From: Candidatus Tayloriibacteriota bacterium
GTDB taxonomy: Bacteria > Patescibacteriota > Minisyncoccia > Phycocordibacterales > UBA6065
Direction: 5' to 3'
DNA length: 64,000 bases
Assembly (NCBI GenBank): GCA_016215405.1
Contig: JACRJQ010000008.1
Coordinates: 124,898 to 188,897 of the forward strand
Shown here: positions 13,000-47,460 of the stretch, piece by piece
Numbering within the stretch: the stretch's first letter is position 1
Layout of the letters: every line of letters starts with the position of its first letter
Notes under the pieces: generated by a model
Databases searched by the model: none
What the model saw: only the letters and a program-made list of their open reading frames with translations
Told to the model about the DNA's origin: nothing
Position numbers and translations under genes: made by a program

Positions 13000-13243
13000 A
13001 GTCCCAGTATATCCTCTTAATTATCTATATATAAGACTATTACTATTAATATACCTGTGGATATGTGTATAAGTCGCGCTTGAGACTATAAACAAGGTTA
13101 TTTCGGATATTTCTCTTGCCGCTACGTGGGGATATCCGGTTTTGTTTCAGAACAACTTTTCGCTCTATGATCGAAAGCTCGAAGTTATCCAACAGCATCC
13201 CTCTCTTATCCACTCGAAATCTACACTTTTCCCCAGGCTTTTC
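13000..13243. other. putative oriC (dnaA-dnaN intergenic region): AT-rich unwinding element plus DnaA boxes
   Basis: Low-GC tract ttaattatctatatataagactattactattaatatacc. DnaA-box-like 9-mers TGTGGATAT (13056-13064), TTATCCAAC (13185-13193), TTATCCACT (13206-13214). Confidence 0.5.
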
Positions 13244-14587: not shown

Positions 14588-14644
14588 GATGCAAGGTTTA
14601 GCGAGCGACCTAAAGTATAGTCGGCCTCAGGGAATTGTAGTACT

Positions 14645-14653
14645 TGTGGATAG
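14645..14653. promoter_or_regulatory. DnaA-box-like site (TGTGGATAG) in the dnaA upstream region
   Basis: One mismatch from TGTGGATAA. A second site, TGTGAACAA, is nearby. Confidence 0.35.
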
Positions 14654-14742
14654 GATGTAAATGTGTTAATAATATGTGAACAAACTGTTGAGAGCGGAGT
14701 TTCCCAAATCTCCGGTTTCGGTTTACACTTTATTCCCTACTT

Positions 14743-17309: not shown

Positions 17310-17315
17310 ATAGGA

Positions 17316-19336: not shown

Positions 19337-19379
19337 GGATATATTGTATCACAAGGAAAAGCCGCGCAGGATGCGCGGC

Positions 19380-21185: not shown

Positions 21186-21189
21186 AGGT

Positions 21190-21825
21190 TTAATTTAGAG
21201 GGATAGGCTTCTCCGTGTCTCCGGGATTGAATATCTTGTAGAAGAGCTCGACGATCTCTTCGGTTCCGAGCTCGACCGACCTGATGCCGCAGCGGACGAG
21301 GCCTTGAGTGACCACCCCCACCCTCTGCTCGAGCTGGCTTCTGTGCTCTTCGAAGAGCTCGATCCTCTTTTCGGCAGATTGAGCGTCGGTCCTTTTCGAG
21401 AAGACGTCGGTCACGCTCGATTTGTTGAGGGTCGCGGGAGAGTAGGGCACGACCACGAAGAACGTCTTGGTCATGATGTTGGAGTTCTCCGTGAAATTCT
21501 TGATGAATCCGATGTACTCGCGGGTCTGGATCTTGAGGAGGTCGGAGACCTGCTCTTTGAGCCTGTTCTCGAGGAGGGCGATGTAGGGCCTGATGTCGAG
21601 CTTTCTAGACTGTATGAATATCTGGATCGAGAAGTCGAGAGAGTTCACGAAATTCTGGAACTGCATGAGGATCGACTGCTGTTCGTCGGCTGATTTGAGC
21701 GCGAAGTTGAGCGAGGACGCCATGATGACGGCGCGAAGCGATCCGTCTTTGAGGACGACGATGCCTTGGCGTATCTCCTTTATAGGGACGAACTCCTGCG
21801 TCGTCTTGGCGTTAACGGCTGGCAT
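21190..21825 (-). CDS. hypothetical protein (T4SS-like operon)
   Basis: 211 aa, tightly packed between virB4 and the VirB3-like gene. Confidence 0.45.
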   Translation of the reverse strand: MPAVNAKTTQEFVPIKEIRQGIVVLKDGSLRAVIMASSLNFALKSADEQQSILMQFQNFVNSLDFSIQIFIQSRKLDIRPYIALLENRLKEQVSDLLKIQTREYIGFIKNFTENSNIMTKTFFVVVPYSPATLNKSSVTDVFSKRTDAQSAEKRIELFEEHRSQLEQRVGVVTQGLVRCGIRSVELGTEEIVELFYKIFNPGDTEKPIPLN

Positions 21826-21842
21826 GGATGAAGTATATCAGA

Positions 21843-22298
21843 TTAGATATTCGACCTGCCCTTCTGGCTCTGGACGGGATTCTGCGCCTGCTTGATGTCG
21901 AGAGACCACGTGAGATCCTTGAGCTTGGAGTCCGAGAGCTTCGGGACGTAGAAATCGTTAGTCGTCGCCTCTGCGGCCTGTTTCGCGATCACCTGCTTGT
22001 CGACCTTCTTCCAGATGTAGAGCTTGTTACCTATGTAATATCCCCAGGCGGCCTCGACGACGTTTATGAACGGCTTGTTGTTTATCTTGTAGAACGCCAG
22101 AGCGAGGGTGAATCCTACGATAGGAAGGATGAGGATGGCGCTTAGGAAGAGGTTGCCCGCAAAGGAATACACGAGGAACGAGAGCCCGGCGCCGCCGAGG
22201 AGGTATATGAACTGCCTGAGGGTGAGGGGGCCGAATATCTTGTCTTCAACCTCTATGAACTGGGGCACCTGGAATCGCATAGCGATATTATAGCGCAA
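21843..22298 (-). CDS. VirB3/PrgI-like small membrane protein
   Basis: 151 aa with two adjacent TM helices (LGGAGLSFLVYSFAGNLFLSAILILPIVGFTLALAF), directly upstream of virB4 as in Gram-positive T4SS. Confidence 0.5.
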   Translation of the reverse strand: MRYNIAMRFQVPQFIEVEDKIFGPLTLRQFIYLLGGAGLSFLVYSFAGNLFLSAILILPIVGFTLALAFYKINNKPFINVVEAAWGYYIGNKLYIWKKVDKQVIAKQAAEATTNDFYVPKLSDSKLKDLTWSLDIKQAQNPVQSQKGRSNI

Positions 22299-22324
22299 AA
22301 AACATCGCCCTTGCGGGCGATGTT

Positions 22325-22954
22325 CTAGGCGATAGGCTCTCTGTAAGGGTCCGCGGAGTATTTTGGCTTTGGCGGTTCGGGGACTGGGTGCTGTAGCGTC
22401 GGTTCGGGCTTTATCTGGGCCCTTTGGGCCGGGAGATTGACCGTTTCCGTGAGTTTCCCTGCTATGAATTCGTTGGCCACCGTCTTTTTCGATTCCTCGA
22501 GGACCTCTTTTGGTACCGCCGGGCCTCCGGTATCGACGGTTATAGGAGGCGTGGAAGGAGTCGGATTCTCGATTTCGGCGAGGAGGCTCTCTCGTTCGAG
22601 GTTCTCGAGTTTTGATTCTTGTGGCGTAGCCGACGCTTCGACCGGAGTACCTGCAGCGATATTTCGGAAAGGGAGGAATACGCTCTGATTGAGCTCATTC
22701 ACCACTCCGTTGAGGTCTTTTACCGACCCTCCGAGAGCCTTGCCTAATTCCCGCGGGAAGTCTGAGGTGTTCAGGAGGCCCGTGAGAGCGAGAAAGACAA
22801 GATCACCCATCTTCCCTATCCCATCGAGGAGGAGGCCGTGCCGGGTTCCGATGTCACGGAGAGAGGATGTGAAATCCACAGACGCGAGGAACTCCTTTTC
22901 CCTTTCAGAGAGCCTTTTGTACGAATATATTTTTTGTTCGTTGGTGAAATCCAT
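22325..22954 (-). CDS. hypothetical protein (T4SS-like operon)
   Basis: 209 aa soluble protein with a Pro-rich C-terminus. Confidence 0.45.
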   Translation of the reverse strand: MDFTNEQKIYSYKRLSEREKEFLASVDFTSSLRDIGTRHGLLLDGIGKMGDLVFLALTGLLNTSDFPRELGKALGGSVKDLNGVVNELNQSVFLPFRNIAAGTPVEASATPQESKLENLERESLLAEIENPTPSTPPITVDTGGPAVPKEVLEESKKTVANEFIAGKLTETVNLPAQRAQIKPEPTLQHPVPEPPKPKYSADPYREPIA

Positions 22955-22956
22955 CT

Positions 22957-25392
22957 CTAGAATGTTTTACCTACGGGATTGTCGCGGAACCACTCGATGA
23001 CCTTATCGACATTCTCTCTTACGTCTGGAGGTAGGGTCGCGGGAGCGTTCTGGATTCTGGTCTTGATCTCAGTCCTTTCGGCAGAGCCGAGCTCGTCGAG
23101 CACTTTTCCGAGGGTCTTCGGAGTGAGGCGGTAGATGACCTCGGAGTGACTGAGCCTCTTATCTGGACCTCCTGGATCTCTCCAGCCGAGCTTTGCGATC
23201 TCGTTCTCCTCGAGCTCCTTGAGCTCGTCGCGAATCACAGCGACGTTTCCTAGAGATATCGCGTCATCGAGCTTCTTATAGCGGGCATCCTTCATCTTTT
23301 TCTTGGTCGTGCCGGTGAGCCTCGAGCTCTTCATGAGCTTGTCGAACTTGTCGTAATCCATGACATGAGGATTGACGAAGGATTCTTCGATGAGGGTGTC
23401 AGGAGTGAGATTCTCGAGCTCTTTGTCGGAGTGGCTCTTGATAGCCTTTTTGACCTCTTCTGCCGATGCTCTGTTCTTGACCGCGCCCGATACGTCAGCG
23501 AGCCGAGCGCCCCAGATCTTCGCTTTGTCCTCGTCGTTTTCCGCCTTATCGGCGAGATGCTCTGCCTGGCTCTGCGATATGACCTGGACGAATTGCTCGT
23601 TCTTCGTCGCTTTCTTGTCGAGCTTCTCGAGCTGCTTGTTGCCGAGCTTCTGCGCCTCTTCGGCGATCTTCGCTTTGGCATCTTTTACCGCATTGTTCGA
23701 GTTGTACCCTTGGAGCGCCGTCATGTATTGGGTCTGAGCGGTGCGGTATGCGGCCTCGCTCGCCGCTGTCGGATTCGCTTTCCATGCACTTTCCGCTTGA
23801 TCGAGGCCGACTTTAAGGGCCTTTGTGTTGTAGTGTCCAGGGCCTGCCATGACTTCGAGGACGCTTTCGATCTGTTTGAGTATCGCCTGATTCGCCTTTT
23901 CGATCTTGCGCTCCTCTGCCCACTCGGCGGTATCGGCCTTGATCGCTTTCGCGTCCTTGCCCTTGAGGTCGATTCCCTTGTCTCCGGTGGCGCCGCCTAC
24001 GATATTGGTCATCAGGTTGCCCACCTTGTTGTCCCCGATGCCGATGTTTCGTACGTCCCATGTCCCCGACTTCATCTTGTTCGTCGTCGCCTCCCCTGCA
24101 TCCTTGAGGGCCTTTCGAGGGTCTTTGACATACTTCATAACCTTAGGATCGGTCATCCATGGAGCGAGGTTCTCTTTTCCTGTCTTCTTGAAAGCGTCCC
24201 AACCCTGACCTTTTTCTGCGGTAAGGGCCGCGCCGAGGCCTCGGCCTCCGGCTCGCAAGCCCATCATAAGGCCGCCCGTCGCGTACGTTCCTACGGCTCC
24301 TACAGCGAGCTTGCCGAGAGAGGACGCGAGGCCACCAAGGGCCGTCCCCATCTCGCCCGAGTTCTTCTTTGCGATGTTAAGCGTCGCTTTGAGGAGAAAG
24401 ATGATGAGGAAGTACTGGAAGTACTGCGATACGCTGATGCCCATGCTGTCGATCGCCTTGTCCTGGAGCATCTCGAGGCTGAGGTCTTGCAGGCTATTTA
24501 TGAATTGGAGCGATATATAGAGCATGAGAAGGAACGCGACCGGGAATATTGCGGCGCTCGAGAGCTCCTTCCACCACTTTTTCGAGTACTCGCTTATCTG
24601 AGGCAAGACGCTGCCCATGAATCCTATAGGCGAGAAGACCATGAGGAAGAGTATCGTCACGCTTCGGGCGATGAAGAGCACGGCGCAGTACATGAATATG
24701 TATGTCGCGATGGAGACGACGGTGAGGCGCAGTATCCCGGCTATGAAGCCCTTGCTCGGATCGGTAAGGTCTGCGGGATTCTTTCCCACCCCGTTCGCGT
24801 TCTCTTTGGCGTTTCCGAGCCAGAACTGCATGACGCCGAGCCTCGTCGCGATGAGGCCCGAGAGGCTCGTCGGCTTGTTCTGATCCTGGCTATTGACGAC
24901 GAGGGTCTTCTGGATGCCTCCGTAGAGCCAGTTGCCGAAGACGTTCGAGACATCGACGAGGGTCTTGGTGAAGAAGAGGCTGAAGTTTATGAGAAGGGCG
25001 GCGATGACGACGTTCTTGAGCATGTTCATCGTGCCAAACCTCGTGCCGTTCACTATAGTGCCGAGGCTTATCCAGATGAGGATGAATATGAAGAATATGT
25101 TCGCGATGTCGCGGATGATGACCCAGCCGAGGTTTATCGCCGGAGAGAGGCTGAATATGTAAGCCGTGTGGAGACCGAACTGGATCGAGGTGTCCATGAT
25201 CATGCCTGCGAGGTACATGAAGAAGGACGAGAGCGGGAGTATGAGGATCTCGACCGGCCATATGAAGAATCGGCCTATCGCGCTCGTCGCGATATCTATG
25301 AACTGCGCATGCGCGATCTGCGGCACTACGAAGACCAGCCCTGCGAGGGCGATGAGAGGGAGCGCCGGTCTAAGGTTTATGGATCGCCGCAT
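22957..25392 (-). CDS. VirB6/TrbL-like polytopic membrane protein with a large hydrophilic C-terminal domain
   Basis: 811 aa; signal peptide, at least 6 TM helices in the N-terminal half, long charged coiled-coil-like tail. Confidence 0.6.
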   Translation of the reverse strand: MRRSINLRPALPLIALAGLVFVVPQIAHAQFIDIATSAIGRFFIWPVEILILPLSSFFMYLAGMIMDTSIQFGLHTAYIFSLSPAINLGWVIIRDIANIFFIFILIWISLGTIVNGTRFGTMNMLKNVVIAALLINFSLFFTKTLVDVSNVFGNWLYGGIQKTLVVNSQDQNKPTSLSGLIATRLGVMQFWLGNAKENANGVGKNPADLTDPSKGFIAGILRLTVVSIATYIFMYCAVLFIARSVTILFLMVFSPIGFMGSVLPQISEYSKKWWKELSSAAIFPVAFLLMLYISLQFINSLQDLSLEMLQDKAIDSMGISVSQYFQYFLIIFLLKATLNIAKKNSGEMGTALGGLASSLGKLAVGAVGTYATGGLMMGLRAGGRGLGAALTAEKGQGWDAFKKTGKENLAPWMTDPKVMKYVKDPRKALKDAGEATTNKMKSGTWDVRNIGIGDNKVGNLMTNIVGGATGDKGIDLKGKDAKAIKADTAEWAEERKIEKANQAILKQIESVLEVMAGPGHYNTKALKVGLDQAESAWKANPTAASEAAYRTAQTQYMTALQGYNSNNAVKDAKAKIAEEAQKLGNKQLEKLDKKATKNEQFVQVISQSQAEHLADKAENDEDKAKIWGARLADVSGAVKNRASAEEVKKAIKSHSDKELENLTPDTLIEESFVNPHVMDYDKFDKLMKSSRLTGTTKKKMKDARYKKLDDAISLGNVAVIRDELKELEENEIAKLGWRDPGGPDKRLSHSEVIYRLTPKTLGKVLDELGSAERTEIKTRIQNAPATLPPDVRENVDKVIEWFRDNPVGKTF

Positions 25393-25399
25393 TTAGTAT

Positions 25400-27799
25400 C
25401 TATTGTACTACGAAGTTGCCCGTCGCGGTCTTAAGGACGGTGCCGAACTTATCCTCAACCGTGGTTTCGATGGTATAGGTCCCAGCCGGAGCGCCGACCT
25501 TTATGCTCTGGGCCTTTTGCCTGAAGAGATAGTATTTGGCCGGATTGCTCTGGGTTACCCGCGAGAGCTCGAAGGAGCCCGAATCGTTCTCCGGCGATAT
25601 CGCGAATATCGAGATCTGCTCGCCTTCCCTACCGTACGCGAAGTCCATGGTCGAGAATACCGATAGGTACGATACCCTAGAGCCGTTTCGCTTGATGTTC
25701 GATTTTATGGTGAGCTCGTTACCAGAAGATATCGGCTTTTCTGCCGTAAGGCGGAGCTCGTAGCCCTGAGAAGAGCCGTTCGCTATCGAAGACGTCGGCG
25801 AGGAAGTAAGCCATGCGAGAGTGCTCGTCGCTGTTCGGCCATCGTCTTGTACGGTCGACGAGGATCCGGATGAAGACGACCCCGACCCGCCCGAGATAGG
25901 GGTAGTCGAGCCGACGGAGACGTTACCGATCACTTCGACCTCGATGAGCTCGAGAGGGTGATAGCAGCTCTCGTACTCTCGCTCGCCTCGGAATTCGAAG
26001 GTGACGCGGCATTGGTCGTCGAGCTGGCCCTGCTTCTCTATCCTCACATACCTCCTCGTCTGCCCGACCGGTACGATCGTCGGATTAGGGCTCGAATCTG
26101 CCGGCGAGAGCGAGTCGGATGCCCATGCGTTCTGAGAGGCTCCGTCGGACGCGACGACGCGGATAGATCCCAAGGTCTCTGAGGCGGGCTTGTTCGCGAC
26201 GCGCCAGATGCGCACTTCTTTTATGGCTTTGGCCGCGCCGAGGTCTACTTCCCACCATGGGTTCTCTTCCTCTGCGCTTATCGCCGGTTGATTATATTGG
26301 GTGACGTTACCGTCTTTGTTCCCGTTCACGGCGTTGTTCGCAGAACCGCCTCCGAAGCTCGATTGGGATGCGGGCTTGAGGAGAGCGTAATTCTGCTCGG
26401 TCGCCTCTTCTGATGAGAAATTATCGCTGATGAGCTCTTGCTGGGCCTGCTGCTGGGCGACCGCCTTGTTAGTCGCTATATCGGTCGCCTTATAGATGTC
26501 TTGGACCCCGGCGTCGTTCTGGACGAGGTCGGCGGCCGCATCGAAGTCTCGTACTTGGTAGTCTTCGGCCGGAGACGTCGCTCCGGTCGCTGTTGTCCCT
26601 CCGGCGCCGTAGTATTGGTTCTGGTATTTATTGTAATAGCTCTGGCTCGCCGAGCTCTTCTTGCTCATGCCGAGGAGGCCGTATGCGCCTTGAATCGCCT
26701 TTTGAGCGAGCTGGTTCATCGTCGCTGCGATGACGTCGTCGATCTCCTGCGCGACTGCGGCCTGGATGTCCCCTTGGGCCAAGGTGCTGTTGAGCTTCGA
26801 GGCGATGACGTATCCCGGAGTCTGGGTCACTTGCTTCTTGCAGATAGGCTTTTCGGAGGTCGAGAATATCGTCTGAGTCTTCGTGGCCGAGGTCGGCGCG
26901 GAGGTCTGTTTGCCGTCTAAGCTGTATGTCCCGAACGCGTCGGCGTTGAGGTTGGTCTTTTGGACCTGTACCCCTCCCTCCTTTCCGCCACTTTTCTTTA
27001 CAGCCTCCACTCTCGCTTTAGCTTCTGCTTCCGTCTCGAGGTCTTCCGCCGCGCACTTCCTCGGGATATCGAGGAAGCCTTGGCCCAAAGCGAGCTTGTT
27101 CTGCTTGATCCCCGCGGCGCGCGCAGCCCTCTCCGCAAGCTCGCCGTCGGCTATGACATAGGCGCCGTAGACGTTGTTCTGGGGCTCGGTCGTAAGGGAG
27201 AGCCAGTTGTCCCAGCCTTGTCCGCCGTTCGTCGCTATGTTGTTGCCGATCTGCGATGCCGTACATCGAGCTCTCTCTCGAAACGGCCTACTATATTTGA
27301 GGGCGAGGGCGATTCGGATCTGGAATCCGAAGTCGTTACAGAGGAATCCGAGCTCCGTGCCTTCGATGAAGGTGCCTACTGCCTGGTCGGCCGCGTCGAG
27401 GAGCGTTCCTTCGAAGTCGGTCACGAACGTAGGGCTGCCTTCGAAACCGGAATTCACCCAGTTGACTATGCTCGAGCCGATATTTCGGATGAGCGAAACG
27501 ATCATTATCTTTGCGAGAGGCTGGAGGATGCAGCTGTTGAAGGACGCCGAGTGGACGGCTGCGTTGGTCGACGTGTCCTGGAGCGTGTCGCCGCTGCCGT
27601 CAGAGACGCCGATGATCTCTTTCACCCATGCAGGCGTGCTCACTCCAATAGCGGTGAGGAGGCCGACGATACAGGCTCCGGCTTTGCCTTGACCTTGGGC
27701 ATATACAGGCTTAGGCGGCAGAGCGGCGAGGCTTGCGGGGATGACGAAAGAGAGAGCGAGTATCGATGCTGTTATCTTTGTGAGGACGCTCTTCTTCAT
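25400..27799 (-). CDS. large secreted protein with a discoidin (F5/8 type C)-like domain
   Basis: 799 aa; signal peptide. ...NAVNGNKDGNVTQYNQPAISAEEENPWWEVDLGAAKAIKEVRIWRV resembles a galactose-binding-like fold. C-terminal Ser/Gly-rich linker plus a beta domain. Confidence 0.55.
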   Translation of the reverse strand: MKKSVLTKITASILALSFVIPASLAALPPKPVYAQGQGKAGACIVGLLTAIGVSTPAWVKEIIGVSDGSGDTLQDTSTNAAVHSASFNSCILQPLAKIMIVSLIRNIGSSIVNWVNSGFEGSPTFVTDFEGTLLDAADQAVGTFIEGTELGFLCNDFGFQIRIALALKYSRPFRERARCTASQIGNNIATNGGQGWDNWLSLTTEPQNNVYGAYVIADGELAERAARAAGIKQNKLALGQGFLDIPRKCAAEDLETEAEAKARVEAVKKSGGKEGGVQVQKTNLNADAFGTYSLDGKQTSAPTSATKTQTIFSTSEKPICKKQVTQTPGYVIASKLNSTLAQGDIQAAVAQEIDDVIAATMNQLAQKAIQGAYGLLGMSKKSSASQSYYNKYQNQYYGAGGTTATGATSPAEDYQVRDFDAAADLVQNDAGVQDIYKATDIATNKAVAQQQAQQELISDNFSSEEATEQNYALLKPASQSSFGGGSANNAVNGNKDGNVTQYNQPAISAEEENPWWEVDLGAAKAIKEVRIWRVANKPASETLGSIRVVASDGASQNAWASDSLSPADSSPNPTIVPVGQTRRYVRIEKQGQLDDQCRVTFEFRGEREYESCYHPLELIEVEVIGNVSVGSTTPISGGSGSSSSGSSSTVQDDGRTATSTLAWLTSSPTSSIANGSSQGYELRLTAEKPISSGNELTIKSNIKRNGSRVSYLSVFSTMDFAYGREGEQISIFAISPENDSGSFELSRVTQSNPAKYYLFRQKAQSIKVGAPAGTYTIETTVEDKFGTVLKTATGNFVVQ

Positions 27800-27828
27800 G
27801 TAGGAGGATTAGCGACTTTAATTATACC

Positions 27829-28716
27829 CTATCGCGTAAGGACATATCCCCTTTCGTCTGAGGAGAACGTCACGTTCTTAGAGATGAAATAGCTCCGAAG
27901 CCCGAGGCTACCGGCGGTGAGGAGGTCGATGCCATCCTCGTAGGTTCGTATCTTGGTGAGCGAGGCTATCGGGTCCACGTCCATAGAGAGGATGCCTTCG
28001 ACCGCCCTCGAGAGGTAGGATATGCCGTTTATAAGGTCGATGTGGATCGATGCGGCATCCTGCGGTACCACCACCGATCTAAGCGACTCGGCGATATCTT
28101 GGTAGCGCTTCAGTATGAGTATGAGGCTCTCGACGTCGCCTTTTTCGCTCTCGTCGTTCATTATCCTCTCGAGGATGATGAGCTCTTGGTCTCCCGGCAC
28201 AGGTGGGACGGAAAGAGCCTTTCCTACCGCGTTTCCATAGGATTTAACGCGCGCGCGGCTCGTATCTGTCGTGACGGATATGTCGCTTGCTGTGATAAGG
28301 GGCATTTGCCCAGAATAGTCGTTCGAGAGGGCGAGCTCAGCGATCTTTTCGGCGGTGGCCTCGTCGATCTTTTCCCCGTTCTGTTTCGCCTGAGCATAGA
28401 GGGTGAAAAGCTCGCGAGCGAACCGGTCTGTCGCCGTGAGCTCTGCAGGCGTAGATGAGGCGTAAGCGTCCGGGTCGCCCGCCGTGCTCGTCGCAGAATC
28501 GATCCCTCCGAGGAGCTGGAGGCTTTTCTCCCAATCTATCTCGCCGTTCTTTATCGCCTCTTTGACGCTCGCATCGGCCAAGAGCCCGACCTGCTGTCTG
28601 AGATCTTCCTTTGGAGCGTTCTTTTGCGCGACCTTCATCGCTCCCGCTGCTCCAATCAAAAGGAGCGCGATGACGAGAGAGGCTCCGATCTTCGTCTTGA
28701 GAAACGCAAGAGGCAT
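27829..28716 (-). CDS. secreted/membrane-anchored hypothetical protein (first gene of the T4SS-like operon)
   Basis: Start MPLAFLKTKIGASLVIALLLIGAAGA is a signal/anchor. A TATAAT box lies immediately upstream on the minus strand. The longer ORF start at 29070 was rejected because it would overlap the divergent gene. Confidence 0.5.
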   Translation of the reverse strand: MPLAFLKTKIGASLVIALLLIGAAGAMKVAQKNAPKEDLRQQVGLLADASVKEAIKNGEIDWEKSLQLLGGIDSATSTAGDPDAYASSTPAELTATDRFARELFTLYAQAKQNGEKIDEATAEKIAELALSNDYSGQMPLITASDISVTTDTSRARVKSYGNAVGKALSVPPVPGDQELIILERIMNDESEKGDVESLILILKRYQDIAESLRSVVVPQDAASIHIDLINGISYLSRAVEGILSMDVDPIASLTKIRTYEDGIDLLTAGSLGLRSYFISKNVTFSSDERGYVLTR

Positions 28717-28764
28717 TGCACAGAGATTATAGCAGGTATTCGAGAGGCGCGTTATACTTTTCTC

Positions 28765-29910
28765 ATGAATACTAGGCGCGCCCTGGCTCTTGTCGTCCTT
28801 CTCCTCGTCGCGATCGGCATATTTCTCTTTTTCTGGCTCTTTAAAAAAGACGCTTCTAACCCTGTCGCTCCTTTTCCAGATAGCGGCGCGCCGATATTCG
28901 GCGAATCGGGAGGATCCCTCCCGCCAGCCAACCCTCCGGCAGAAGGAGGCGCCTCGGAAGTGATCCTGCCTCCTACGCCTGAAGCCGCTCTTATCGCCTC
29001 CTGCGATTCGCCTGTATCTATAGAGAGGAACGATTGCGTGAAAAAGGCCGCAGTAAAGGCCCAGAATCAATCTCTGTGCGCGGCCATCCTCGGGACCTTA
29101 GGCCAGACCGATTGTAGGAACGCCGTTTTGCGCACCGAAGATAAGATCGCAGATATCTCTATGGATGCGACCGTACGTTATGATTTCGAGTTCGCCGAAC
29201 CTGTCGTCGCTCCGGCCGAACCTGTCGATACGATATCGACGAGGCTCGCAGAGGCGTTCGAAAAGGCCGCCGACGCGGTGCGGGAGGCGAGGCAGAACCC
29301 GGACCCGAGATATACCGCGGACGGCTTCATCGCCCGATTCAGCTCGTCGTCGCCAATGCTCTATTCGTTCTCGAGGTCTCAGGCTTTGCCTGGAACCGAG
29401 CTCGTCGCCCAAGGCCTCGGCTTCACGAAGACCGGCAATGAGATCCATATCGGAAACTATGCCGTGTCGGGACTCGCGAGCGCCGACGGCATGACGATCA
29501 GGTTCACCCTTCCCGGCAGCATGGAATACGGGACGTACGATACCTGGGTGACGAACGAGAGAGGCTCGAGTAGGAACATGAGCCAGCCGATACGGCTCAC
29601 GATCACCGATTCGCCGCTCTCGCCGCCTACGATAACAGGCATCTCCCCTAGCGTTCCGACACTCTCTGACACCGTCACTGTCTATGGCAGCAATCTACGG
29701 GGGGCGCTCGGCATCTATACCTCTCTCGGCGTGCTTGAGAATGTCTATGCAGGAGACTCGTCTTTGACTTTCAAGATAAGCGACTTCCCCATGATCGAGA
29801 AGATAAAGGATATAAAGGGAGTGAAGGGGAATCTTGTCGCCGTCACCCTCATCGTCGGCACGCCGCAGGGATACAACCAGGAACCTTTCTTATTTAATGT
29901 ACAATTCTGA
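28765..29910 (+). CDS. membrane-anchored surface protein with a C-terminal IPT/TIG-like domain
   Basis: Start MNTRRALALVVLLLVAIGIFLFFWLF is a TM anchor; C-terminal PPTITGISPSVPTLSDTVTVYGSNL looks like an IPT fold. Divergent from the T4SS-like operon. Confidence 0.5.
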   Translation: MNTRRALALVVLLLVAIGIFLFFWLFKKDASNPVAPFPDSGAPIFGESGGSLPPANPPAEGGASEVILPPTPEAALIASCDSPVSIERNDCVKKAAVKAQNQSLCAAILGTLGQTDCRNAVLRTEDKIADISMDATVRYDFEFAEPVVAPAEPVDTISTRLAEAFEKAADAVREARQNPDPRYTADGFIARFSSSSPMLYSFSRSQALPGTELVAQGLGFTKTGNEIHIGNYAVSGLASADGMTIRFTLPGSMEYGTYDTWVTNERGSSRNMSQPIRLTITDSPLSPPTITGISPSVPTLSDTVTVYGSNLRGALGIYTSLGVLENVYAGDSSLTFKISDFPMIEKIKDIKGVKGNLVAVTLIVGTPQGYNQEPFLFNVQF

Positions 29911-41067: not shown

Positions 41068-41187
41068 CTTAGGAGGATAGCACATATATTTTAAAAATGC
41101 AAGGCTTTTAGCCCTCGTTTGGCGGCGAGGGCCTCTTTGAAGGGGTTTTGGTATAATATTGTGCGACACGCGCGGTCATATAGAACC

Positions 41188-42138
41188 ATGGCATCACTTA
41201 AAGAATTAAAGACCCGGTTCCTCGAATATACGGAGATAGAAAAGGGTCGCAGCCTCAATACCGTACAGAACTACGACCGCTATCTCACCCGTTTTCTAGG
41301 TTTTTTAAAGAAGGATTCCCCTTCTGACATCACCGACGCTTCGGTGCGCGATTTTCGCCTGTGGCTTAACCGCCAGTCGACCGGCAACAATAAAAAGACC
41401 GGCGAGACGTTAAAGAAAAAGACGCAGAACTACTACCTTATCGCTTTGCGCGCGTTCCTCAAGTACCTCGCGCGGCAGAATGTAAAATCACTCGCGCCCG
41501 AGCGTATCGAGCTCGCGAAAGTCGGCGAGCGGCACATCGAGTTTATGAACAACGACGAGCTTCATCGCCTCCTGGAGGCGCCGAAAGTCCTAGGGGAGGC
41601 CAAGGATAAGGGCTCTGGCCTTAAGGTCTTGCGCGATTACGCGATCTTGCAGCTCCTTTTCTCGACAGGGCTTCGCGTCTCCGAGCTCTGCTCCCTTTCG
41701 CGCGACATCGACCTTTCGGCGGAGGAAGTGTCTATCCGCGGCAAGGGTGACAAGGTTCGCGTCGTGTTCCTTTCAGACGAGGCGCGCTCGGCGGTCAAAG
41801 CCTATCTCGACAAGCGAGACGACATGGATGACGCTCTCTTTGTGAAAGTCGCGGTGGAGAAGCGCGCGAACGGCGGGTCGGCGCCCTTAACCCGCCGCTC
41901 GGTCGAGAGGATCGTCAAATTCTATGCGGGCAAGGCGGGCATCATGTCGAAGAAGGTAACGCCTCACGTCATACGGCATTCTTTCGCGACCGACCTCCTT
42001 TCAAACGGCGCCGACTTACGCTCGGTCCAGGCTCTGTTAGGCCATGCCAATATCGGCACCACCCAGATCTATACTCACGTGACAGACAAACACCTGCGTA
42101 ATATCCACAAGCAGTTTCACAATCGACGTAAAAATTGA
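41188..42138 (+). CDS. xerC: tyrosine recombinase XerC/XerD
   Basis: Core-binding N-domain plus catalytic HVIRHSFATDLL...LLGHANIGTTQIYTHV (R..H-R-Y). Confidence 0.85.
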   Translation: MASLKELKTRFLEYTEIEKGRSLNTVQNYDRYLTRFLGFLKKDSPSDITDASVRDFRLWLNRQSTGNNKKTGETLKKKTQNYYLIALRAFLKYLARQNVKSLAPERIELAKVGERHIEFMNNDELHRLLEAPKVLGEAKDKGSGLKVLRDYAILQLLFSTGLRVSELCSLSRDIDLSAEEVSIRGKGDKVRVVFLSDEARSAVKAYLDKRDDMDDALFVKVAVEKRANGGSAPLTRRSVERIVKFYAGKAGIMSKKVTPHVIRHSFATDLLSNGADLRSVQALLGHANIGTTQIYTHVTDKHLRNIHKQFHNRRKN

Positions 42139-43553: not shown

Positions 43554-45047
43554 CTATTTCACCTTATGTTTGTTGCGTATCTTGGCGAGCTCCTCTTCTT
43601 CCGCTTTCATTTTCTTCTCTTTCCCTACCGCCGCGAGCTTGCTTAGCGTGGGCAGATCAAGCTCGTTGAGCTCCTTTGTCCTCGTCGAGAGATACTCGTC
43701 GGTGTTTTTCTTCGGATCGTCGAGCACTTCTTCCATAAGGGCGTTAAGGATGAGCCCGACCTTAGGTCCCGGCGCCATCTTCCCTATCTCCATGACCTTC
43801 TTGCCGTCGATCTTGAGCATGCCTACCGATATTGGGTCGCGCAGAGCCTCTTCGACCATGGCTTTGTACTTGCGGAGCCGATACGGATTCTCCTTAGGCC
43901 TTCCCGTGCCTATCCTGTCGCAGATTCTGACGTTCATGAGGTCCCAGATCCGCTCTTTTCCAACGTTCGCTATCATGCGGCGTACCGCAGAAAGGGTTAT
44001 CTGTTCGGTATCTGAGAAGAACATGTGCCAGCGGACCAGTTTTACCACATAGTCGACCGTTTCACGTGAAAAATTGAGGTTTTTGAGTATCTTTTCGGTC
44101 ATTTTCGCCCCCACGACTTCGTGGCCATAGAACGTATACTTCGTTTCACGGGAAACCCTCCTTGTACGTGGCTTGCCGATATCGTGAAAAAGAGCCGCGA
44201 TCCTTATCTCCAAAGGATATTTCTTGTCTGCTGCATGTTGTACCGTTCTTAGGAGATGTTCCCAGACGTCGTAGGCATGAGCCATATTTTGCTCAATATC
44301 GTAGGATTCCTCGAGCTCTTTCGCTATATAAGGAATAACTCCCAATTCCCTGCTCATTATCAAGGCGTTCATGGGCACATCTGACATAAGGATACGCACG
44401 AATTCCTCGCGGATGCGCTCTTTCGCTATATGGCCCAGGAGGTTTGCGTGCGTTTTGAGGGCTTCTAAGGTTCCCTTTTCTATCCCAAACCCGAGTTCAG
44501 CGGATATTCGAATGGCCCTCATTATGCGCAGGGCGTCTTCCGATAGGCGATCATGAGGGTTGCCGACAGTCCTAATAAGGCCATTTTTAAGGTCCTTTTG
44601 GCCATCGAACATATCGGTTATGCTTCCTGTGAAACTGTCGGTCTCCCCTTTCCTCTCGATTTTGAGGGCAAGGGCGTTTATTGTGAAATCCCGGCGTTTG
44701 AGGTCGTCTTCAAGCTTCTTGCTGAAAGTCACGCTATCGGGTCGTCTCTTGTCGGTATAGCCCGATTCAAGCCTAAAAGGCGTCACCTCGATGACTTTTA
44801 GCCTGGGACTTGAGGCGTCCTCAGAGACGACGCCTACTGTGCCGTAATCGTTCTCATAGAACGTATGTTCGAAGGTCTTTACGATCTCCTCCGGAGACGC
44901 GTCGGTCGCAACATCCCAATCTTTCGGTTCGCGGCCGATGAGTAGGTCTCGGACGCAGCCGCCAACGAGATATGCCTGAAATCCAGATTTCTCCAGACCC
45001 TCTGTTACGTGTGAAACCTCTTTCGGGATCTTAAATGAATTTTTCAT
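43554..45047 (-). CDS. cca: CCA-adding tRNA nucleotidyltransferase with HD domain
   Basis: GGCVRDLLIG...DWDVAT (pol-beta NT), RRDFTINALAL, HD motif LFHDIGKP. Internal start MKNSFKIPKEV with TATAAT upstream. The longer ORF would overlap the tRNA-Arg gene. Confidence 0.85.
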   Translation of the reverse strand: MKNSFKIPKEVSHVTEGLEKSGFQAYLVGGCVRDLLIGREPKDWDVATDASPEEIVKTFEHTFYENDYGTVGVVSEDASSPRLKVIEVTPFRLESGYTDKRRPDSVTFSKKLEDDLKRRDFTINALALKIERKGETDSFTGSITDMFDGQKDLKNGLIRTVGNPHDRLSEDALRIMRAIRISAELGFGIEKGTLEALKTHANLLGHIAKERIREEFVRILMSDVPMNALIMSRELGVIPYIAKELEESYDIEQNMAHAYDVWEHLLRTVQHAADKKYPLEIRIAALFHDIGKPRTRRVSRETKYTFYGHEVVGAKMTEKILKNLNFSRETVDYVVKLVRWHMFFSDTEQITLSAVRRMIANVGKERIWDLMNVRICDRIGTGRPKENPYRLRKYKAMVEEALRDPISVGMLKIDGKKVMEIGKMAPGPKVGLILNALMEEVLDDPKKNTDEYLSTRTKELNELDLPTLSKLAAVGKEKKMKAEEEELAKIRNKHKVK

Positions 45048-45087
45048 TTTACCCTTATTATATAAGCCTTTTAGAGTGCTTTGCTGT

Positions 45088-45158
45088 GCTCCCGGAGGGA
45101 TTCGAACCCCCAACAACGGTTCCGAAGACCGGTATGATATCCATTTCACTACGGGAGC
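45088..45158 (-). tRNA. tRNA-Arg (anticodon UCG)
   Basis: Cloverleaf folded by hand: acceptor GCTCCCG/CGGGAGC, D-stem GTGA/TCAT, anticodon loop CTTCGGA (U33, UCG, G37), T-arm GGGGG-TTCGAAT-CCCTC. One C:U mismatch at 27:43. Confidence 0.7.
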
Positions 45159-45248
45159 AACAGGGTAATCATACGCGAAAAGGGCGATAAATCAAAAATA
45201 TCTGGGATATTTTGAATTTTCGATGGCTTGGTGTATATTGTTTTCATC

Positions 45249-45319
45249 GCGGGTATCGTTTAGTGGTAGGACACGTCCTTGCCAAGGATGAGGTGAGAGT
45301 TCGATTCTCTCTACCCGCA
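45249..45319 (+). tRNA. tRNA-Gly (anticodon GCC)
   Basis: Acceptor GCGGGTA/TACCCGC, anticodon stem CGTCC/GGATG with loop TTGCCAA, T-arm GAGAG-TTCGATT-CTCTC. Confidence 0.85.
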
Positions 45320-45361
45320 CAAATGAAAAGGCGCCTCAGGGCGCCTTTTCATTTGTGCGGG
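45314..45361 (+). terminator. 22-bp perfect hairpin that uses the tRNA-Gly 3' acceptor strand (CCCGCACAAATGAAAAGGCGCC-TCAG-GGCGCCTTTTCATTTGTGCGGG)
   Basis: The stem includes the last 6 nt of the tRNA; likely terminator or processing structure. Confidence 0.5.
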
Positions 45362-45810
45362 TAAGCCCTGCCTTTGACAGGACGTGGAAGAATCGAAGCC
45401 ACTCTCCTATGTTTCTGAGGATGTATCCATCCCGAGAAACAGGAGACGGGTACTGCCCACGTGAGGAACGATTCTCCCCATCTCAACAAAATCTTAAATG
45501 TCCTTTACGCTTTGAAACAATTTTCCCCTCCCTCTCGTATAAAGCATTTTCTAAAAAACGACTATATTTAAGGGTATTTTGCAAAACTGTGGATAACTCT
45601 GTGGATTGTGTTTAAAAGACATGGTCTACGACCGAGTTGAGGGCCCTGTCTTTTGTCCTTGGTAGCGCTTCATAGAGCCTTATATTGACAGATTCTCGAT
45701 ATTAATCCAGAAGATAGGTGCTATGTTACATATGTAACATAATTTACTGTTTCATGTGAAATTTTAGTCGTTTTTATATTTATTTTAGGGTTATCAGGCA
45801 TACTTTCAGT

Positions 45811-46240: not shown

Positions 46241-46275
46241 TCTTTTAAATATATGAAAAACCGCCTTAAGGCGGT
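46241..46275. terminator. bidirectional hairpin terminator (ATATGAAAAACCGCC-TTAA-GGCGGTTTTTCATAT)
   Basis: Immediately 3' of tRNA-Pro (minus strand) and downstream of yraN (plus strand). Confidence 0.55.
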
Positions 46276-46286
46276 TTTTCATATTG

Positions 46287-46359
46287 TCGGGGCGCTGGGA
46301 TTCGAACCCAGAGTCACTTGATCCCAAGTCAAGCATGTTAGCCGTTACACCACGCCCCG
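46287..46359 (-). tRNA. tRNA-Pro (anticodon UGG)
   Basis: Acceptor CGGGGCG/CGCCCCG, anticodon stem CTTGA/TCAAG with loop CTTGGGA, T-arm CTGGG-TTCGAAT-CCCAG. Confidence 0.85.
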
Positions 46360-46413
46360 TCTCGAAGTTTTGTCATGGTATCATGGCGCGGATATTTTTG
46401 CTATATTCTCCGC

Positions 46414-46725
46414 ATGTCTAAGAGATTCATCCGTACGATAGAGGACTTCGTCTGCGAGCGTTGCGGCAAGAAGGTTGAGGGAACTGGCTATACGAACCAC
46501 TGTCCAGCATGTCTGTGGTCGAAGCATGTAGACAAGAACCCGGGAGATAGACTCGAGGCCTGCGGGGGAATGATGGAGCCTTTTAGGGCGGAGAGAGAAG
46601 GGAAGAGGGACCTCATAGTATTTAAGTGCCTTAAATGCGGATTTCAAAGGAGGAACGAGCTATCGGCCAAAGACGATTTCGAAGCCTTCATCGCTATCAT
46701 GAAAAAGGCGTCCGCCGAAAGATAG
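46414..46725 (+). CDS. RNHCP-domain-like zinc-ribbon protein
   Basis: MSKRFIRT...CERCGKK...NHCPACLWSKHVD...CLKCGF Cys clusters; ~103 aa. Confidence 0.55.
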   Translation: MSKRFIRTIEDFVCERCGKKVEGTGYTNHCPACLWSKHVDKNPGDRLEACGGMMEPFRAEREGKRDLIVFKCLKCGFQRRNELSAKDDFEAFIAIMKKASAER

Positions 46726-47131
46726 TCAAGATGGGTTTCCTTGCGGCCCAAGAGAGCTGTTTGACAAAATTTATATAAGTTATGGAATACGGTTTCGCTT
46801 GAAAGAAAGCCGCTCTCGGACTCCTCGGCGAACGGCCTTGTCGGGAGAGGTATTACAAAAAACATCGATAATCGATCTGTGTCAACATGCCGAGGGCCCT
46901 TTGACAGGAGCTTTACGGATATTGCTCCTTTGAATGAATCTCTCTTTTGGGGCGTATAGTAGATGCGAAGGGCGGGAGACCGGCCTTCGAGAAAGGTCGT
47001 CGGTTTATACGCGAAGTTAAACGACAACGTTAAATACCATGGCAGATACCAATCGAGATCAGAAGAAGAACCCTAACAATAAGGAGAACCAGGAAGGCGG
47101 AAACAACCAGCAGTAAGCTATCTCCGCGATG

Positions 47132-47198: not shown

Positions 47199-47269
47199 GC
47201 GGGCGTAATTTAGTGGTAGAATGACTGCCTTCCAAGCAGTAAGTCCGGGTTCGATTCCCGGCGCCCGCA
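47199..47269 (+). tRNA. tRNA-Gly (anticodon UCC)
   Basis: Acceptor GCGGGCG/CGCCCGC, anticodon stem ACTGC/GCAGT with loop CTTCCAA, T-arm CCGGG-TTCGATT-CCCGG. Confidence 0.85.
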
Positions 47270-47311
47270 CAAATGAAAAATCCCTTCAGGGGGATTTTTC
47301 ATTTGTGCGGG
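47264..47311 (+). terminator. 21-bp hairpin using the tRNA-Gly 3' strand (CCCGCACAAATGAAAAATCCC-TTCAG-GGGATTTTTCATTTGTGCGGG)
   Basis: Same architecture as at 45314-45361, with compensatory changes in the distal stem. Confidence 0.5.
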
Positions 47312-47460
47312 CGAGAACGTCTGGTAGACGTTCGTCCAGTGATCGAAAAGGTTCTGCTATGTTTTCGAGGATTTCCATCCGAAAAAACGGGAGATCTGTA
47401 CTGCGGCTGTAAGCCGAGATATTCCGGCGCCCGAGACTAGAAGTGATTATAGATAAAGTG

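Follow-up and report, generated by a model that had tools for sequence, protein, structure and literature searches.

Worn copies of a family of small folded modules carrying tRNA-derived segments follow two tRNA-Gly genes of a Candidatus Tayloriibacteriota bacterium

The trailers of the two tRNA-Gly genes found in the window, the whole stretch of 64,000 nucleotides of Candidatus Tayloriibacteriota DNA analysed here, belong, as worn copies, to a hitherto undescribed family of small non-coding modules with a folded structure. These modules measure approximately 100-200 nt, and no ORF fits inside them. They were explored in a comparison set of 80 related metagenomic loci of uncultured bacteria, probably of a CPR/Patescibacteria-like lineage and including three loci from Hainich groundwater (L010, L020 and L065), and a covariance model of their conserved block (R1), run over 892 kb of related loci and the window, revealed 42 copies, solely the two known ones being in the window. 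Thirty-nine of these copies were placed 18-400 nt downstream of a tRNA-Gly, tRNA-Arg or tRNA-Pro gene of the same strand. The best reading of these findings, with a probability of roughly 45%, is that of a duplicative, tRNA-mimicking RNA module riding on tRNA transcription.

Both tRNA-Gly genes were borne out by ARAGORN and Rfam on the plus strand, where all module features given below also lie: tRNA-Gly(GCC) at 45249-45319/20 (64.4 bits with the Rfam tRNA model) and tRNA-Gly(UCC) at 47199-47269/70 (74.6 bits), neither of them encoding CCA. In tRNA-Gly(GCC), the T-loop occupies 45300-45306, the T-stem 3′ strand 45307-45311, and the acceptor 3′ strand with the discriminator 45312-45319. Behind each gene, RNAfold recovered a hairpin that uses the tRNA 3′ end (hairpin 1), as had been described in the original prediction, with 22 consecutive pairs and a 4-nt loop (45314-45361, loop TCAG, in module 1; 47264-47311 in module 2). 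Its arm, CCCGCACAAATGAAAA, has exactly four occurrences in the window, against ~0.03 expected by chance, and these are the two arms of the two hairpins (45314-45329/45346-45361 and 47264-47279/47296-47311). The distal 5-6 pairs presented the reported compensatory changes, GGCGCC/GGCGCC versus AUCCC(U)/(G)GGGAU, and in both copies the inner stem is terminator-like, the GGCGCC stem of module 1 being followed by TTTT and the ATCCC(T)/(G)GGGAT stem of module 2 by TTTTT. In the outer 6 bp of the first hairpin, TGCGGG is paired with the tRNA 3′ end. A terminator hairpin was also observed for the tRNA-Pro gene (46246-46283), and long A/U-extended terminator hairpins are usual behind tRNAs in this lineage.

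In module 1, hairpin 1 overlaps the segment X′acc, TGCGGGTA (45356-45363), which was read from the sequence, equals the tRNA 5′ acceptor strand and complements the tRNA 3′ strand. It is followed by a second hairpin (hp2; CCTG-CCTTTGA-CAGG, 45367-45381) and by X′T, GGAAGAATCGAA (45386-45397), the complement of the T-loop and the T-stem 3′ strand, which forms the 5′ strand of helix P1 and pairs with 45469-45478 at -10.6 kcal/mol. The core helix P2, corresponding to the conserved block folded as a stacked hairpin, spans 45398-45450, and 45451-45468 hold the junction (G)TACTG and, after it, a P3 hairpin that is eroded, its loop being GTGA-like versus TGTAA in the family. The module is closed by X2, CGATTCTCCCCATCTCAACA (45469-45488), which repeats, in direct orientation and in degenerate form, the tRNA segment running from the T-loop to the 3′ end; its T-part is retained and its acceptor part eroded, and its placement agrees with the family architecture. 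The covariance-model match covers 45386-45482 with 59.6 bits.

Module 2 preserves the same order: X′acc, TGCGGGCG (47306-47313), again read from the sequence and equal to the tRNA 5′ acceptor strand; hp2, GAACGTC-TGGTA-GACGTTC (47315-47333); X′T, CCAGTGATCGAA (47336-47347), an eroded T-loop/T-stem complement with three mismatches to CCGGGAATCGAA; a core at 47348-47416, with P2 at 47350-47396, the junction TGTACTG at 47397-47403 and P3, CGGCT-GTA-AGCCG, at 47404-47416; and X2, AGATATTCCGGCGCCCGAGA (47417-47436), a direct repeat of the tRNA 3′ end, which reads CGATTCCCGGCGCCCGCACA in the tRNA itself. Its covariance-model match covers 47336-47430 with 73.3 bits, and its P1 duplex reaches just -2.9 kcal/mol. 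Each window copy retains one clear tRNA-derived element, the other one being eroded: P1 was kept and the acceptor part lost in copy 1, and the acceptor part was kept and P1 lost in copy 2. Shuffle tests gave p ~0.0005 for the inverted element and p ~0.05 for the direct repeat alone in copy 1, and p ~0.0005 for the direct repeat and p ~0.09 for the inverted element in copy 2. Both window copies are probably in decay.

The second short hairpins and the conserved block claimed at the outset proved to be real. The two copies of the block align at ~45398-45458 and ~47348-47406 and fold as a stacked hairpin with a compensatory swap, GUUUCU/AGAAAC versus GUUUUC/GAAAAC. Conservation does not extend to the reading frame, as had been proposed, since a 2-nt indel in the block shifts the frame on both strands, and a protein-coding small ORF was rejected for this lack of a frame conserved between copies. 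The T-loop/T-stem complement before the block and the terminal direct repeat of each module had been overlooked. The original view that the shared sequence is no att-site repeat also needs revision: a direct repeat of the tRNA 3′ end closes every module, and it escaped notice because it is degenerate in the window.

Comparison with the related loci demonstrated that the trailers are homologous, structured and conserved in relatives, and they are more than generic terminators, because the covariance model of the block finds 42 strongly covarying copies. The proposal that the resemblance reflects chance, or generic terminators sharing a tRNA 3′ end, could appeal to the long A/U-extended hairpins that are normal after tRNAs in this lineage, such as that of tRNA-Pro. 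It is already refuted, its probability being virtually nil, by the pattern and shuffle statistics, by the E-values of the 42 matches (down to 6e-21, with the weakest few near 1) and by the covariation of the helices.

The relation of the modules to the tRNA that precedes them was verified across the related loci. In 33 of 185 distinct tRNA contexts, the complement of a tRNA's own T-loop and T-stem lay no more than 220 nt downstream, versus 1 of 185 in the upstream control, and the inverted copy preceded the direct one in all 11 cases where both were found. Where the final 20 nt of the tRNA were repeated almost perfectly, the repeat was always on the same strand, 42-403 nt downstream. The direct repeat reaches 24-27 identical bases in the fresh copies of relatives and is degenerate in the window; at times such repeats run 15-17 nt beyond the mature tRNA end, into the trailer. 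In relatives, the family was also found behind tRNA-Arg(TCG) and tRNA-Pro(TGG), matched to the T-arm and acceptor of each tRNA, and some modules are located between same-strand tRNA-Arg and tRNA-Gly genes with a weak hairpin alone intervening. Several core types occur, of which A/C, B and D were named, and one core type was present at three tRNA species, matched in each case to the local tRNA.

On the tRNA strand, a module starts with the terminator-like hairpin, an optional copy of the acceptor 5′ strand and a small hairpin in a slot of 19-25 nt, continues with a T-stem 5′ strand joined to the complement of the T-loop, a segment that always ends in TCGAA, and with a three-way-junction core, and ends with the direct tRNA repeat, from the T-loop to the discriminator. 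Helix P1 is composed of the inverted and the direct tRNA-derived segments, an acceptor-like stem being added where the 5′ strand copy exists; P3 is stacked directly on P1, and P2 branches from the junction. Fourteen of 34 modules had a recognisable X′acc, whose distance to the following X′T was constant at 19-25 nt, and this slot corresponds to the junction of tRNA positions 7 and 49. The inverted segment X′ is the exact complement of X and not a copy of the tRNA's own T-stem 5′ strand; for example, a tRNA-Arg has GUGGG where its module has GCAGG. The small hairpin of copy 1 is similar to the anticodon arm read as its reverse complement (p ~0.004 before correction for four tests), and that of copy 2 has TGGTAGA in common with the D-loop (p ~0.04), both probably by chance. 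A tandem tRNA duplicate with hp2 as the relic of the D or the anticodon arm was rejected, the similarity to the tRNA body in 30 long-spacer modules being at shuffle level.

The fold is conserved on the tRNA-sense strand. P1 duplexes were more stable with their own partner (mean -11.2 kcal/mol) than across partners (-7.4 kcal/mol), 92.5% of the P2/P3 cells were paired versus 53% in shuffles, and the covariation score was 0.78 versus 0.195, with slid controls at or below 0.143 and double changes at 12 of 12 pairs. In the type D helix GGUCGCG/UGUGACC, G.U pairs were kept in 5/5 and 4/5 copies; in the type A/C helices, the window's own type, 20 G.U against 15 A.C combinations represent a slim excess that leaves the strand undecided there. 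Moreover, in three orthologous loci with 89-90% identity (L027, L029 and L037), two stems were replaced wholesale with pairing retained, and the junctions, P3, P1 and the 3′ repeat were near-invariant; these parts are, judging from this alignment, under purifying selection. A pseudoknot of the P3 loop (UGUAA) with the junction (GUACUG) was discarded for absence of covariation.

The original prediction had explained the two units by an ancient duplication of a tRNA-Gly gene with its trailer, possibly conserved as a termination or 3′-processing structure serving the tRNA in cis. This proposal is improbable. The two units do align across tRNA and trailer, hairpin 1 is terminator-like, and full-length folds of tRNA plus trailer confirmed the suspected competition between hairpin 1 and the acceptor stem. 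In copy 1, hairpin 1 grows to 24 bp and takes the acceptor 3′ strand, and in copy 2 the downstream repeat X2 pairs with the tRNA 5′ acceptor strand, displacing the tRNA's own 3′ strand, so that the trailer could affect the maturation of read-through transcripts. However, tRNA-Arg and tRNA-Pro genes carry the same modules, and the window copies, 61% identical to each other and 64-67% identical to modules behind other tRNAs elsewhere, are no nearer each other than to the latter. Besides, tRNA-Gly(GCC) and tRNA-Gly(UCC) are separate isoacceptors conserved across all loci, and in the closest relatives most orthologous tRNA-Gly genes have an ordinary terminator behind them, with no module, which indicates that tRNA-Gly can mature without it. 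The duplication was accordingly abandoned, and the tRNA-linked small RNA also suggested at the outset is still the leading reading.

Close relatives differ by gain, loss and amplification of modules, intact ones being found, among others, in L053, L067, L075, L017 and L038. For example, two loci 99.7% identical (L063 and L064) are yet two modules apart, another (L053) carries two perfect 117-nt units, the tRNA-Arg gene of L004 is filled versus the window's tRNA-Arg gene, which is empty, with no module behind it, and tandem arrays present different cores within one slot. A clean comparison of empty and filled sites (L008 versus L012/L015) was discarded because the divergence was too large for exact boundaries. 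Direct repeats of a tRNA 3′ end are the classic signature of integration, and the modules could in principle be scars of integrase-driven prophages or islands whose internal deletion left the att-proximal arms. This is very improbable: independent deletions would not give the same architecture of 100-200 nt at many tRNAs and genomes, helices that covary as single-stranded folds are unexpected for double-stranded att arms, the junctions are under purifying selection, and neither integrase remnants nor phage matches were seen.

According to the leading reading, the module RNA would be produced by read-through or co-transcription from the tRNA promoter, the tRNA-derived helices would constitute an acceptor/T-stem handle through which the module could be released and completed by RNase P, RNase Z and the CCA-adding enzyme, and the functional part would be the three-way-junction core, acting with a putative partner. 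New copies would originate in a duplication at the DNA level, located at the 3′ end of the tRNA, which would restore an intact tRNA with its terminator and shift the old 3′ end downstream; the insertion would be harmless because of this regeneration. The tRNA-like layout, with X′acc at constant spacing from the T-stem copy, the sense-strand G.U pairs conserved in type D and the modules located between same-strand tRNA genes all favor an RNA. Against tRNA mimicry, the module T-loop is paired and not free, so that the elbow used as a ruler by RNase P, RNase Z and the CCA-adding enzyme is missing, and more than half of the modules have no recognisable acceptor 5′ strand. Also, hairpin 1 appears, in the window, to be competent as an intrinsic terminator, and most tRNA transcripts may therefore end before the module, while the repeats reaching 15-17 nt past the tRNA end point to a DNA-level event rather than to selection for mimicry. 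The patchy distribution, the truncated copies and the eroded window copies would fit a purely selfish element equally well.

Phage CTX attP(+) and integron attC are folded single-strand sites recombined by strand exchange. By analogy, the modules might be mobile DNA mini-elements whose folded single strand is a recombination site, conserved for mobility and not for RNA function, a possibility that is unlikely, although it is the main rival reading. The inverted and direct segments would form a hairpin copying the tRNA-gene duplex from the T-loop to the 3′ end, with the junction as its unpaired centre, and a tyrosine recombinase acting in trans, possibly the host Xer, would swap one strand with the tRNA gene. 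This would account for an X′ that exactly complements X instead of copying the T-stem 5′ strand, for the direct repeats that extend past the tRNA end into the trailer, for the tandem arrays with different cores per slot and for presence or absence varying among close relatives. Likewise, an inverted copy, ~80-100 nt and a direct copy at one end, with a regenerated target at the other, is the arrangement that an integrated hairpin attP leaves behind, as is established for CTX phage and integrons. The Xer-type gene mentioned in the original prediction does exist ~3 kb from the modules (41119-42138), although the tie between the two that its presence might suggest did not emerge: the protein scores as an ordinary XerC/D/A type, and its 118 bits with the integron integrase model are below the cut-off of 265 bits. 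Among the scanned window proteins, there was no integron-type integrase, transposase or reverse transcriptase, no autonomous gene-carrying version and no long-range tRNA repeats were detected within 10 kb, and viral contigs and phage genomes gave no matches. Moreover, conservation of G.U (G.T) pairs and of loop sequences is more usual in RNA, the small hairpin kept at constant spacing at the acceptor/T-stem junction has no role in a duplex mimic, and recombination alone leaves unexplained the retargeting between tRNA species with a functional tRNA. A replication origin at the locus was also discarded, since the GC skew has no switch there and dnaA and dnaN are 30 kb away.

Searches for known counterparts were performed at several levels. 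In the window and nine module-rich loci, Rfam at gathering and permissive E-values (up to 10) revealed true tRNAs only, four of them in the window; the weak matches to SpF41, permuted tmRNA and STnc370 cover the tRNA or the terminator. The block pattern had three matches in 185,579 species genomes, all by chance and inside coding sequence, pattern scans of viral contigs and phage BLAST found no modules, and such modules were not described in the texts covered by a full-text literature search. Hammerhead and other ribozymes were rejected by inspection, since the order of the junction strands is wrong and the candidate core bases belong to covarying helices; for the hammerhead, the GAA junction is compatible, but the CUGA-like string is misplaced with respect to P3, on its opposite side and in a covarying helix. 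None of the Rfam families of known self-cleaving ribozymes and riboswitches had a match.

Tentatively, and with doubt, the modules may form a novel class of small non-coding genetic elements copying the 3′ third of the adjacent tRNA gene, the inverted and direct copies forming a helix that mimics the tRNA or its gene. Such a helix would be a handle for propagation, either as an RNA matured by the tRNA machinery or as a folded single-stranded recombination site, and the interchangeable cores, of at least two fold types (three-way junction and pseudoknotted), might include novel ribozymes or protein-binding RNAs. If real, this would be a so far uncatalogued family of structured nucleic-acid modules, borne by a bacterial lineage about which little is known, and unusual in having closing helices copied from the adjacent tRNA, in tolerating several unrelated structured cores in the same socket and in its fast turnover between strains. 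The modules would offer concrete candidates for new RNA folds for catalysis or for ligand or protein binding, and may reveal a novel strategy by which tRNA genes are exploited by a selfish or accessory element that lacks its own integrase. Besides, partial tRNA repeats of this kind can pass for prophage att sites in annotation.

In the context of known systems, the modules resemble tRNA-targeting integrative elements and their CIME- or MITE-like derivatives in occupying the 3′ side of a tRNA gene, in leaving the tRNA intact with a partial copy of its 3′ end in direct orientation downstream (up to 24-27 identical bases in relatives), and in their variable presence among relatives and tandem accretion. 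Unlike these elements, they comprise just 100-200 nt with no integrase or other ORF, the inverted copy of the target pairs with the direct one, the interior is a covarying three-way-junction fold, and one core type occurs at three tRNA species, matched locally to each. No genes enclosed by tRNA 3′ repeats were found in the 10-kb flanks, and the scanned window proteins included no tyrosine or serine integrase other than the Xer-type protein. A MITE was rejected, since the inverted copy lies inside the module, behind the terminator hairpin, instead of at its end, and the duplication involves at least 20-27 nt of specific tRNA sequence.

With integron attC and CTX attP(+) sites, the modules have in common an imperfect hairpin of ~60-140 nt whose structure is conserved over its sequence, with P1, junction and P3 present and covarying helices, an inverted repeat, spacer and direct repeat at one junction, an arrangement in hairpin arrays, and a GTT in the T-loop, GTT being the triplet where integron sites recombine. 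They differ from these sites in that the target is the T-arm/acceptor segment of a tRNA and not attI or dif, IntI was not found, the modules have no cargo gene, the AAC partner triplet is present in type B cores alone, and the junction and loop sequences and G.U pairs are conserved.

The tRNA-like RNAs, represented by mascRNA of MALAT1, plant mitochondrial t-elements, the tRNA-like domain of tmRNA and YrlA, have an acceptor-like stem and T-stem followed by a discriminator, with CCA not encoded, as in the modules, which would similarly lie within a transcript beside other RNA genes and have one hairpin replacing the D and anticodon arms. In contrast to these RNAs, the module T-loop is paired with its complement and replaced by a three-way junction, the stems are exact copies of those of the neighbouring tRNA, and the acceptor 5′ strand is absent from over half of the copies; the Rfam tRNA, tmRNA and mascRNA models and ARAGORN did not detect the modules. 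Finally, hairpin 1 corresponds to an intrinsic (bidirectional) terminator, having an inner GC stem between an A-tract and a U-tract, similar to those behind module-free tRNAs in related loci: copy 1 presents GGCGCC-TCAG-GGCGCC and then TTTTCATTT, read directly from the sequence, and copy 2, the sole one listed by the terminator scan, presents TCCCTTCAGGGGG and then ATTTTTCATT. It departs from such terminators in that its stem reaches 6 bp into the mature tRNA and is followed by ~120 nt of conserved structure.

The tRNA cluster comprised four genes, assigned concordantly by ARAGORN and Rfam: tRNA-Arg(TCG) (45086-45158, – strand), tRNA-Gly(GCC) (45249-45319, +), tRNA-Pro(TGG) (46286-46359, –) and tRNA-Gly(UCC) (47199-47269, +), all lacking an encoded CCA in both analyses. 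The gene of the CCA-adding enzyme (43554-45047, –) lay directly beside the cluster (window 43554-45320), with tRNA-Arg on the same strand 38 nt upstream of its start, an arrangement retained in most related loci. The original prediction, that hairpins are built on both tRNA-Gly 3′ ends, was borne out: the 16-mer CCCGCACAAATGAAAA occurred four times in the window, as both arms of two hairpins (about 0.03 expected by chance), each folding into 22 consecutive pairs with distal stems that differ by compensatory changes. Both second hairpins and the block of conserved sequence were likewise present as described; the block took the fold of a stacked hairpin, in which a compensatory swap distinguishes the module behind tRNA-Gly(GCC) (copy 1) from that behind tRNA-Gly(UCC) (copy 2), and a 2-nt indel within it excluded a shared reading frame, as had been proposed. 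What did not hold was the ancient duplication of a single tRNA-Gly-plus-trailer unit, since modules were found behind other tRNAs and the window copies, 61% identical to each other, were 64-67% identical to such modules in other genomes.

Inspection of the sequence 3′ of every tRNA in related loci revealed that the module was limited neither to this window nor to tRNA-Gly. On the tRNA strand, it begins with a terminator-like hairpin (S; A-tract, GC stem and U-tract), often followed by X′acc, complementary to the acceptor 3′ strand and equivalent to the tRNA's own 5′ strand, then by a small hairpin (hp2), by X′_T, which consists of the T-stem 5′ strand and T-loop complement and always ends in TCGAA, by a core of 70-100 nt, and finally by X2, which repeats in direct orientation the tRNA segment that runs from T-loop to discriminator. 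X′_T pairs with X2 to form helix P1. In the window, X′_T was GGAAGAATCGAA (45386-45397) in copy 1 and CCAGTGATCGAA (47336-47347) in copy 2, and X2 was CGATTCTCCCCATCTCAACA (45469-45488) and AGATATTCCGGCGCCCGAGA (47417-47436), respectively. In shuffle tests, copy 1 had a clear X′_T (p about 0.0005) and a weak X2 (p about 0.05), and copy 2 a clear X2 (p about 0.0005) and a weak X′_T (p about 0.09); helix P1 has survived in copy 1 (-10.6 kcal/mol), whereas copy 2 has lost it (-2.9 kcal/mol), so both window copies look eroded. When full-length tRNA and module were folded together thermodynamically, the suspected competition with the acceptor stem also appeared, hairpin 1 growing to 24 bp by taking the acceptor 3′ strand and, in copy 2, the tRNA 5′ strand then pairing with X2; in this model, the competing arm would be missing from transcripts that end at the U-tract. 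The hp2 of copy 1 (45367-45386, CCTTTGACAGGACGTG) resembled the reverse complement of the tRNA-Gly(GCC) anticodon arm (45273-45291, CCTTGGCAAGGACGTG; 7 of 2000 shuffles, before correction for four tests), a likeness not met in other loci and, as a relic of that arm, set aside as probably due to chance.

The extent of the family was assessed in 80 metagenomic loci gathered via the neighbouring CCA-adding enzyme gene (relatives 58-79% identical in protein), the survey covering the tRNA cluster beside this gene only, whose Arg/Gly/Pro/Gly set was retained in most loci. Of 185 distinct tRNA contexts, 33 had a sequence complementary to the T-loop/T-stem of the tRNA itself (up to 2 mismatches in 12) in the first 220 nt downstream, and one had it upstream. 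The inverted copy preceded the direct one in 11/11 cases with both elements detected; that the resemblance arose by chance has a low probability. Where the 3′-terminal 20 nt of a tRNA recurred near-perfectly, the repeat was without exception on the tRNA's strand, at 42-403 nt downstream, and enclosed no genes in the related loci, and conventional prophage scars were likewise rated of low probability. When 892 kb were scanned with R1, a covariance model for the block trained on 18 sequences, 42 copies emerged; the window contributed only the two already known, and 39 of the 42 lay 18-400 nt behind a same-strand tRNA-Gly, -Arg or -Pro. Moreover, P1 was partner-specific (-11.2 kcal/mol with its own partner vs -7.4 kcal/mol across partners). 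One locus, L060, in which ARAGORN detected no tRNA, carried two short solo fragments of the junction-P3 part of the core (2078-2138, –; 336-398, +), reading …AAAGGTGTAC(T/A)G plus the P3 hairpin with its TGTAA loop, and ATCGAA in 2078-2138 only; they may be relics after tRNA loss or rearrangement.

The block proved to be a three-way junction, in which GAA joins P1 to P2, whose distal hairpin varies, (Y)UGUACUG joins P2 to P3, capped by a UGUAA loop, and P3 and P1 abut with zero nucleotides between. Covariation of P2 and P3 was strong, with 92.5% paired cells vs 53% in shuffles, 154 double-change cells vs 52, and a score of 0.78 vs 0.195 shuffled and at most 0.143 in slid controls. Further cores occupied the same socket, namely the short variant type E, type F, and the pseudoknotted types B and D, which have a common UGAGCGACGGCGAG loop. 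In the type D helix GGUCGCG/UGUGACC, G.U pairs were kept in 5/5 and 4/5 copies and would be A.C mismatches on the opposite strand, which identifies the tRNA-sense strand as the folding one; for the window's own core type, the count was too even (20 G.U vs 15 A.C) to be decisive. Types B and D also have conserved YAGYAR hexaloops in common, and one subfamily (L048, L051, L062-L064, L074, L082) conserved an hp2 CUGC tetraloop on variable stems (e.g., CAAACUGCUUUG, CCAACUGCUUGG, GCGACUGCUCGC). The conserved CUGC, YAGYAR and UGAGCGACGGCGAG loops may mediate protein or tertiary contacts.

Module distribution was patchy. Most orthologous tRNA-Gly genes of the closest relatives carried the terminator only, while tRNA-Arg, empty in the window, bore a module in L004; that the module is a trailer serving the tRNA itself was given a low probability. 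Turnover was rapid: L063 and L064 were 99.7% identical, yet differed by 227 nt corresponding to two modules between X′_T repeats; L053 contained two perfect 117-nt units, and L074 an additional unit with a different core. In three loci 89-90% identical (L027 690-954, L029 9640-9905, L037 530-796), the tRNA, S, X′_T, P2 base, junction, P3 and X2 were almost invariant, as expected of inherited modules under purifying selection, and hp2 and the distal P2 stems were wholly exchanged with perfect pairing. Such exchange outpaces point mutation, which suggests swapping by recombination or template-directed repair of the hairpins. In all three, X2 differed from the tRNA in the same private way (GATTCGAATGTCC vs GGTTCGAGTCC), which rules out gene conversion by the tRNA as the cause of X2 conservation. 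In some loci, the direct repeat overshot the tRNA end by 15-17 nt into the trailer, which points to DNA-level duplication.

Several features surrounded the modules. Terminators of tRNA genes in this lineage, which gene content and sample types suggest to be CPR/Patescibacteria-like, were unusually long hairpins with A/U-rich extensions (window 46246-46283 and many loci), apparently bidirectional, such as ATATGAAAAACCGCC-TTAA-GGCGGTTTTTCATAT after tRNA-Pro. Behind this tRNA, a cysteine-rich ORF with two CxxC pairs (46375-46725), without NCBIfam match, seems to reappear after tRNA-Pro in three or more of the related loci (L015, L031, L082), and a highly charged 25-codon mini-ORF (MADTNRDQKKNPNNKENQEGGNNQQ; 47040-47116) with its own terminator lay upstream of tRNA-Gly(UCC). 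Between tRNA-Gly(GCC) and the yraN-like gene, a motif of about AAACTGTGGATAACTCTG(T/G)GGAT..TGTTTAAAAGACA (45583-45625), containing one perfect and one near DnaA-box-like 9-mer, was placed identically in most of L007-L083; its retention at 58-79% protein identity makes a role as operator or promoter of yraN probable. Some 30 kb away from the cluster, dnaN (11899-12999, –) and dnaA (13244-14587, –), with DnaA-box clusters at 13056-13214 and 14488-14653, likely mark the replication origin (11899-14700), and no clear GC-skew switch was visible there. A block of large ORFs, mostly without Pfam match (16077-29070), included a TraG/VirB4-like ATPase (19380-21185, –) and may encode a secretion or conjugation-type apparatus.

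The family is tRNA-linked, strand-specific, structured and polymorphic, and is built around copies, inverted as well as direct, of the tRNA 3′ end. The best reading, to which we assign a probability of roughly 0.45, is a duplicative, tRNA-mimicking RNA module that would be transcribed together with the tRNA or by read-through, in which the tRNA-derived helices might offer tRNA-processing enzymes a handle and the core might be the working part. RNA is favored by the conservation of G.U pairs and of sequences in loops and junctions, the location of some modules between same-strand tRNAs, and the constant spacing of hp2, exactly at the acceptor/T-stem junction (19-25 nt in 14/34 modules). The main rival, a folded single-stranded DNA recombination site like CTX attP(+) or integron attC, accounts neatly for an inverted copy followed by spacer and direct copy, as well as for the exact complementarity of X′ to X, but no cognate enzyme was found among the window proteins scanned, no autonomous relative within the 10-kb flanks and no link to the viral and phage collections searched, and it is considered unlikely.

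No Rfam match to the modules was obtained, and full-text literature searches yielded no description of them. In genomic footprint they resemble att duplications at tRNA genes, and in fold logic both tRNA-like processing handles (mascRNA, t-elements) and attC hairpins. However, they differ from integrative elements at tRNA genes in having no integrase, from inverted-repeat mini-elements in having no terminal inverted repeats, from tRNA-like RNAs in that their T-loop is not free, and from integron attC in that no IntI was found. The modules thus appear to fall outside each known family compared by its own defining tests, and it is conceivable, if rather doubtful, that they represent something more distinct than att duplications, tRNA-like handles or attC hairpins.
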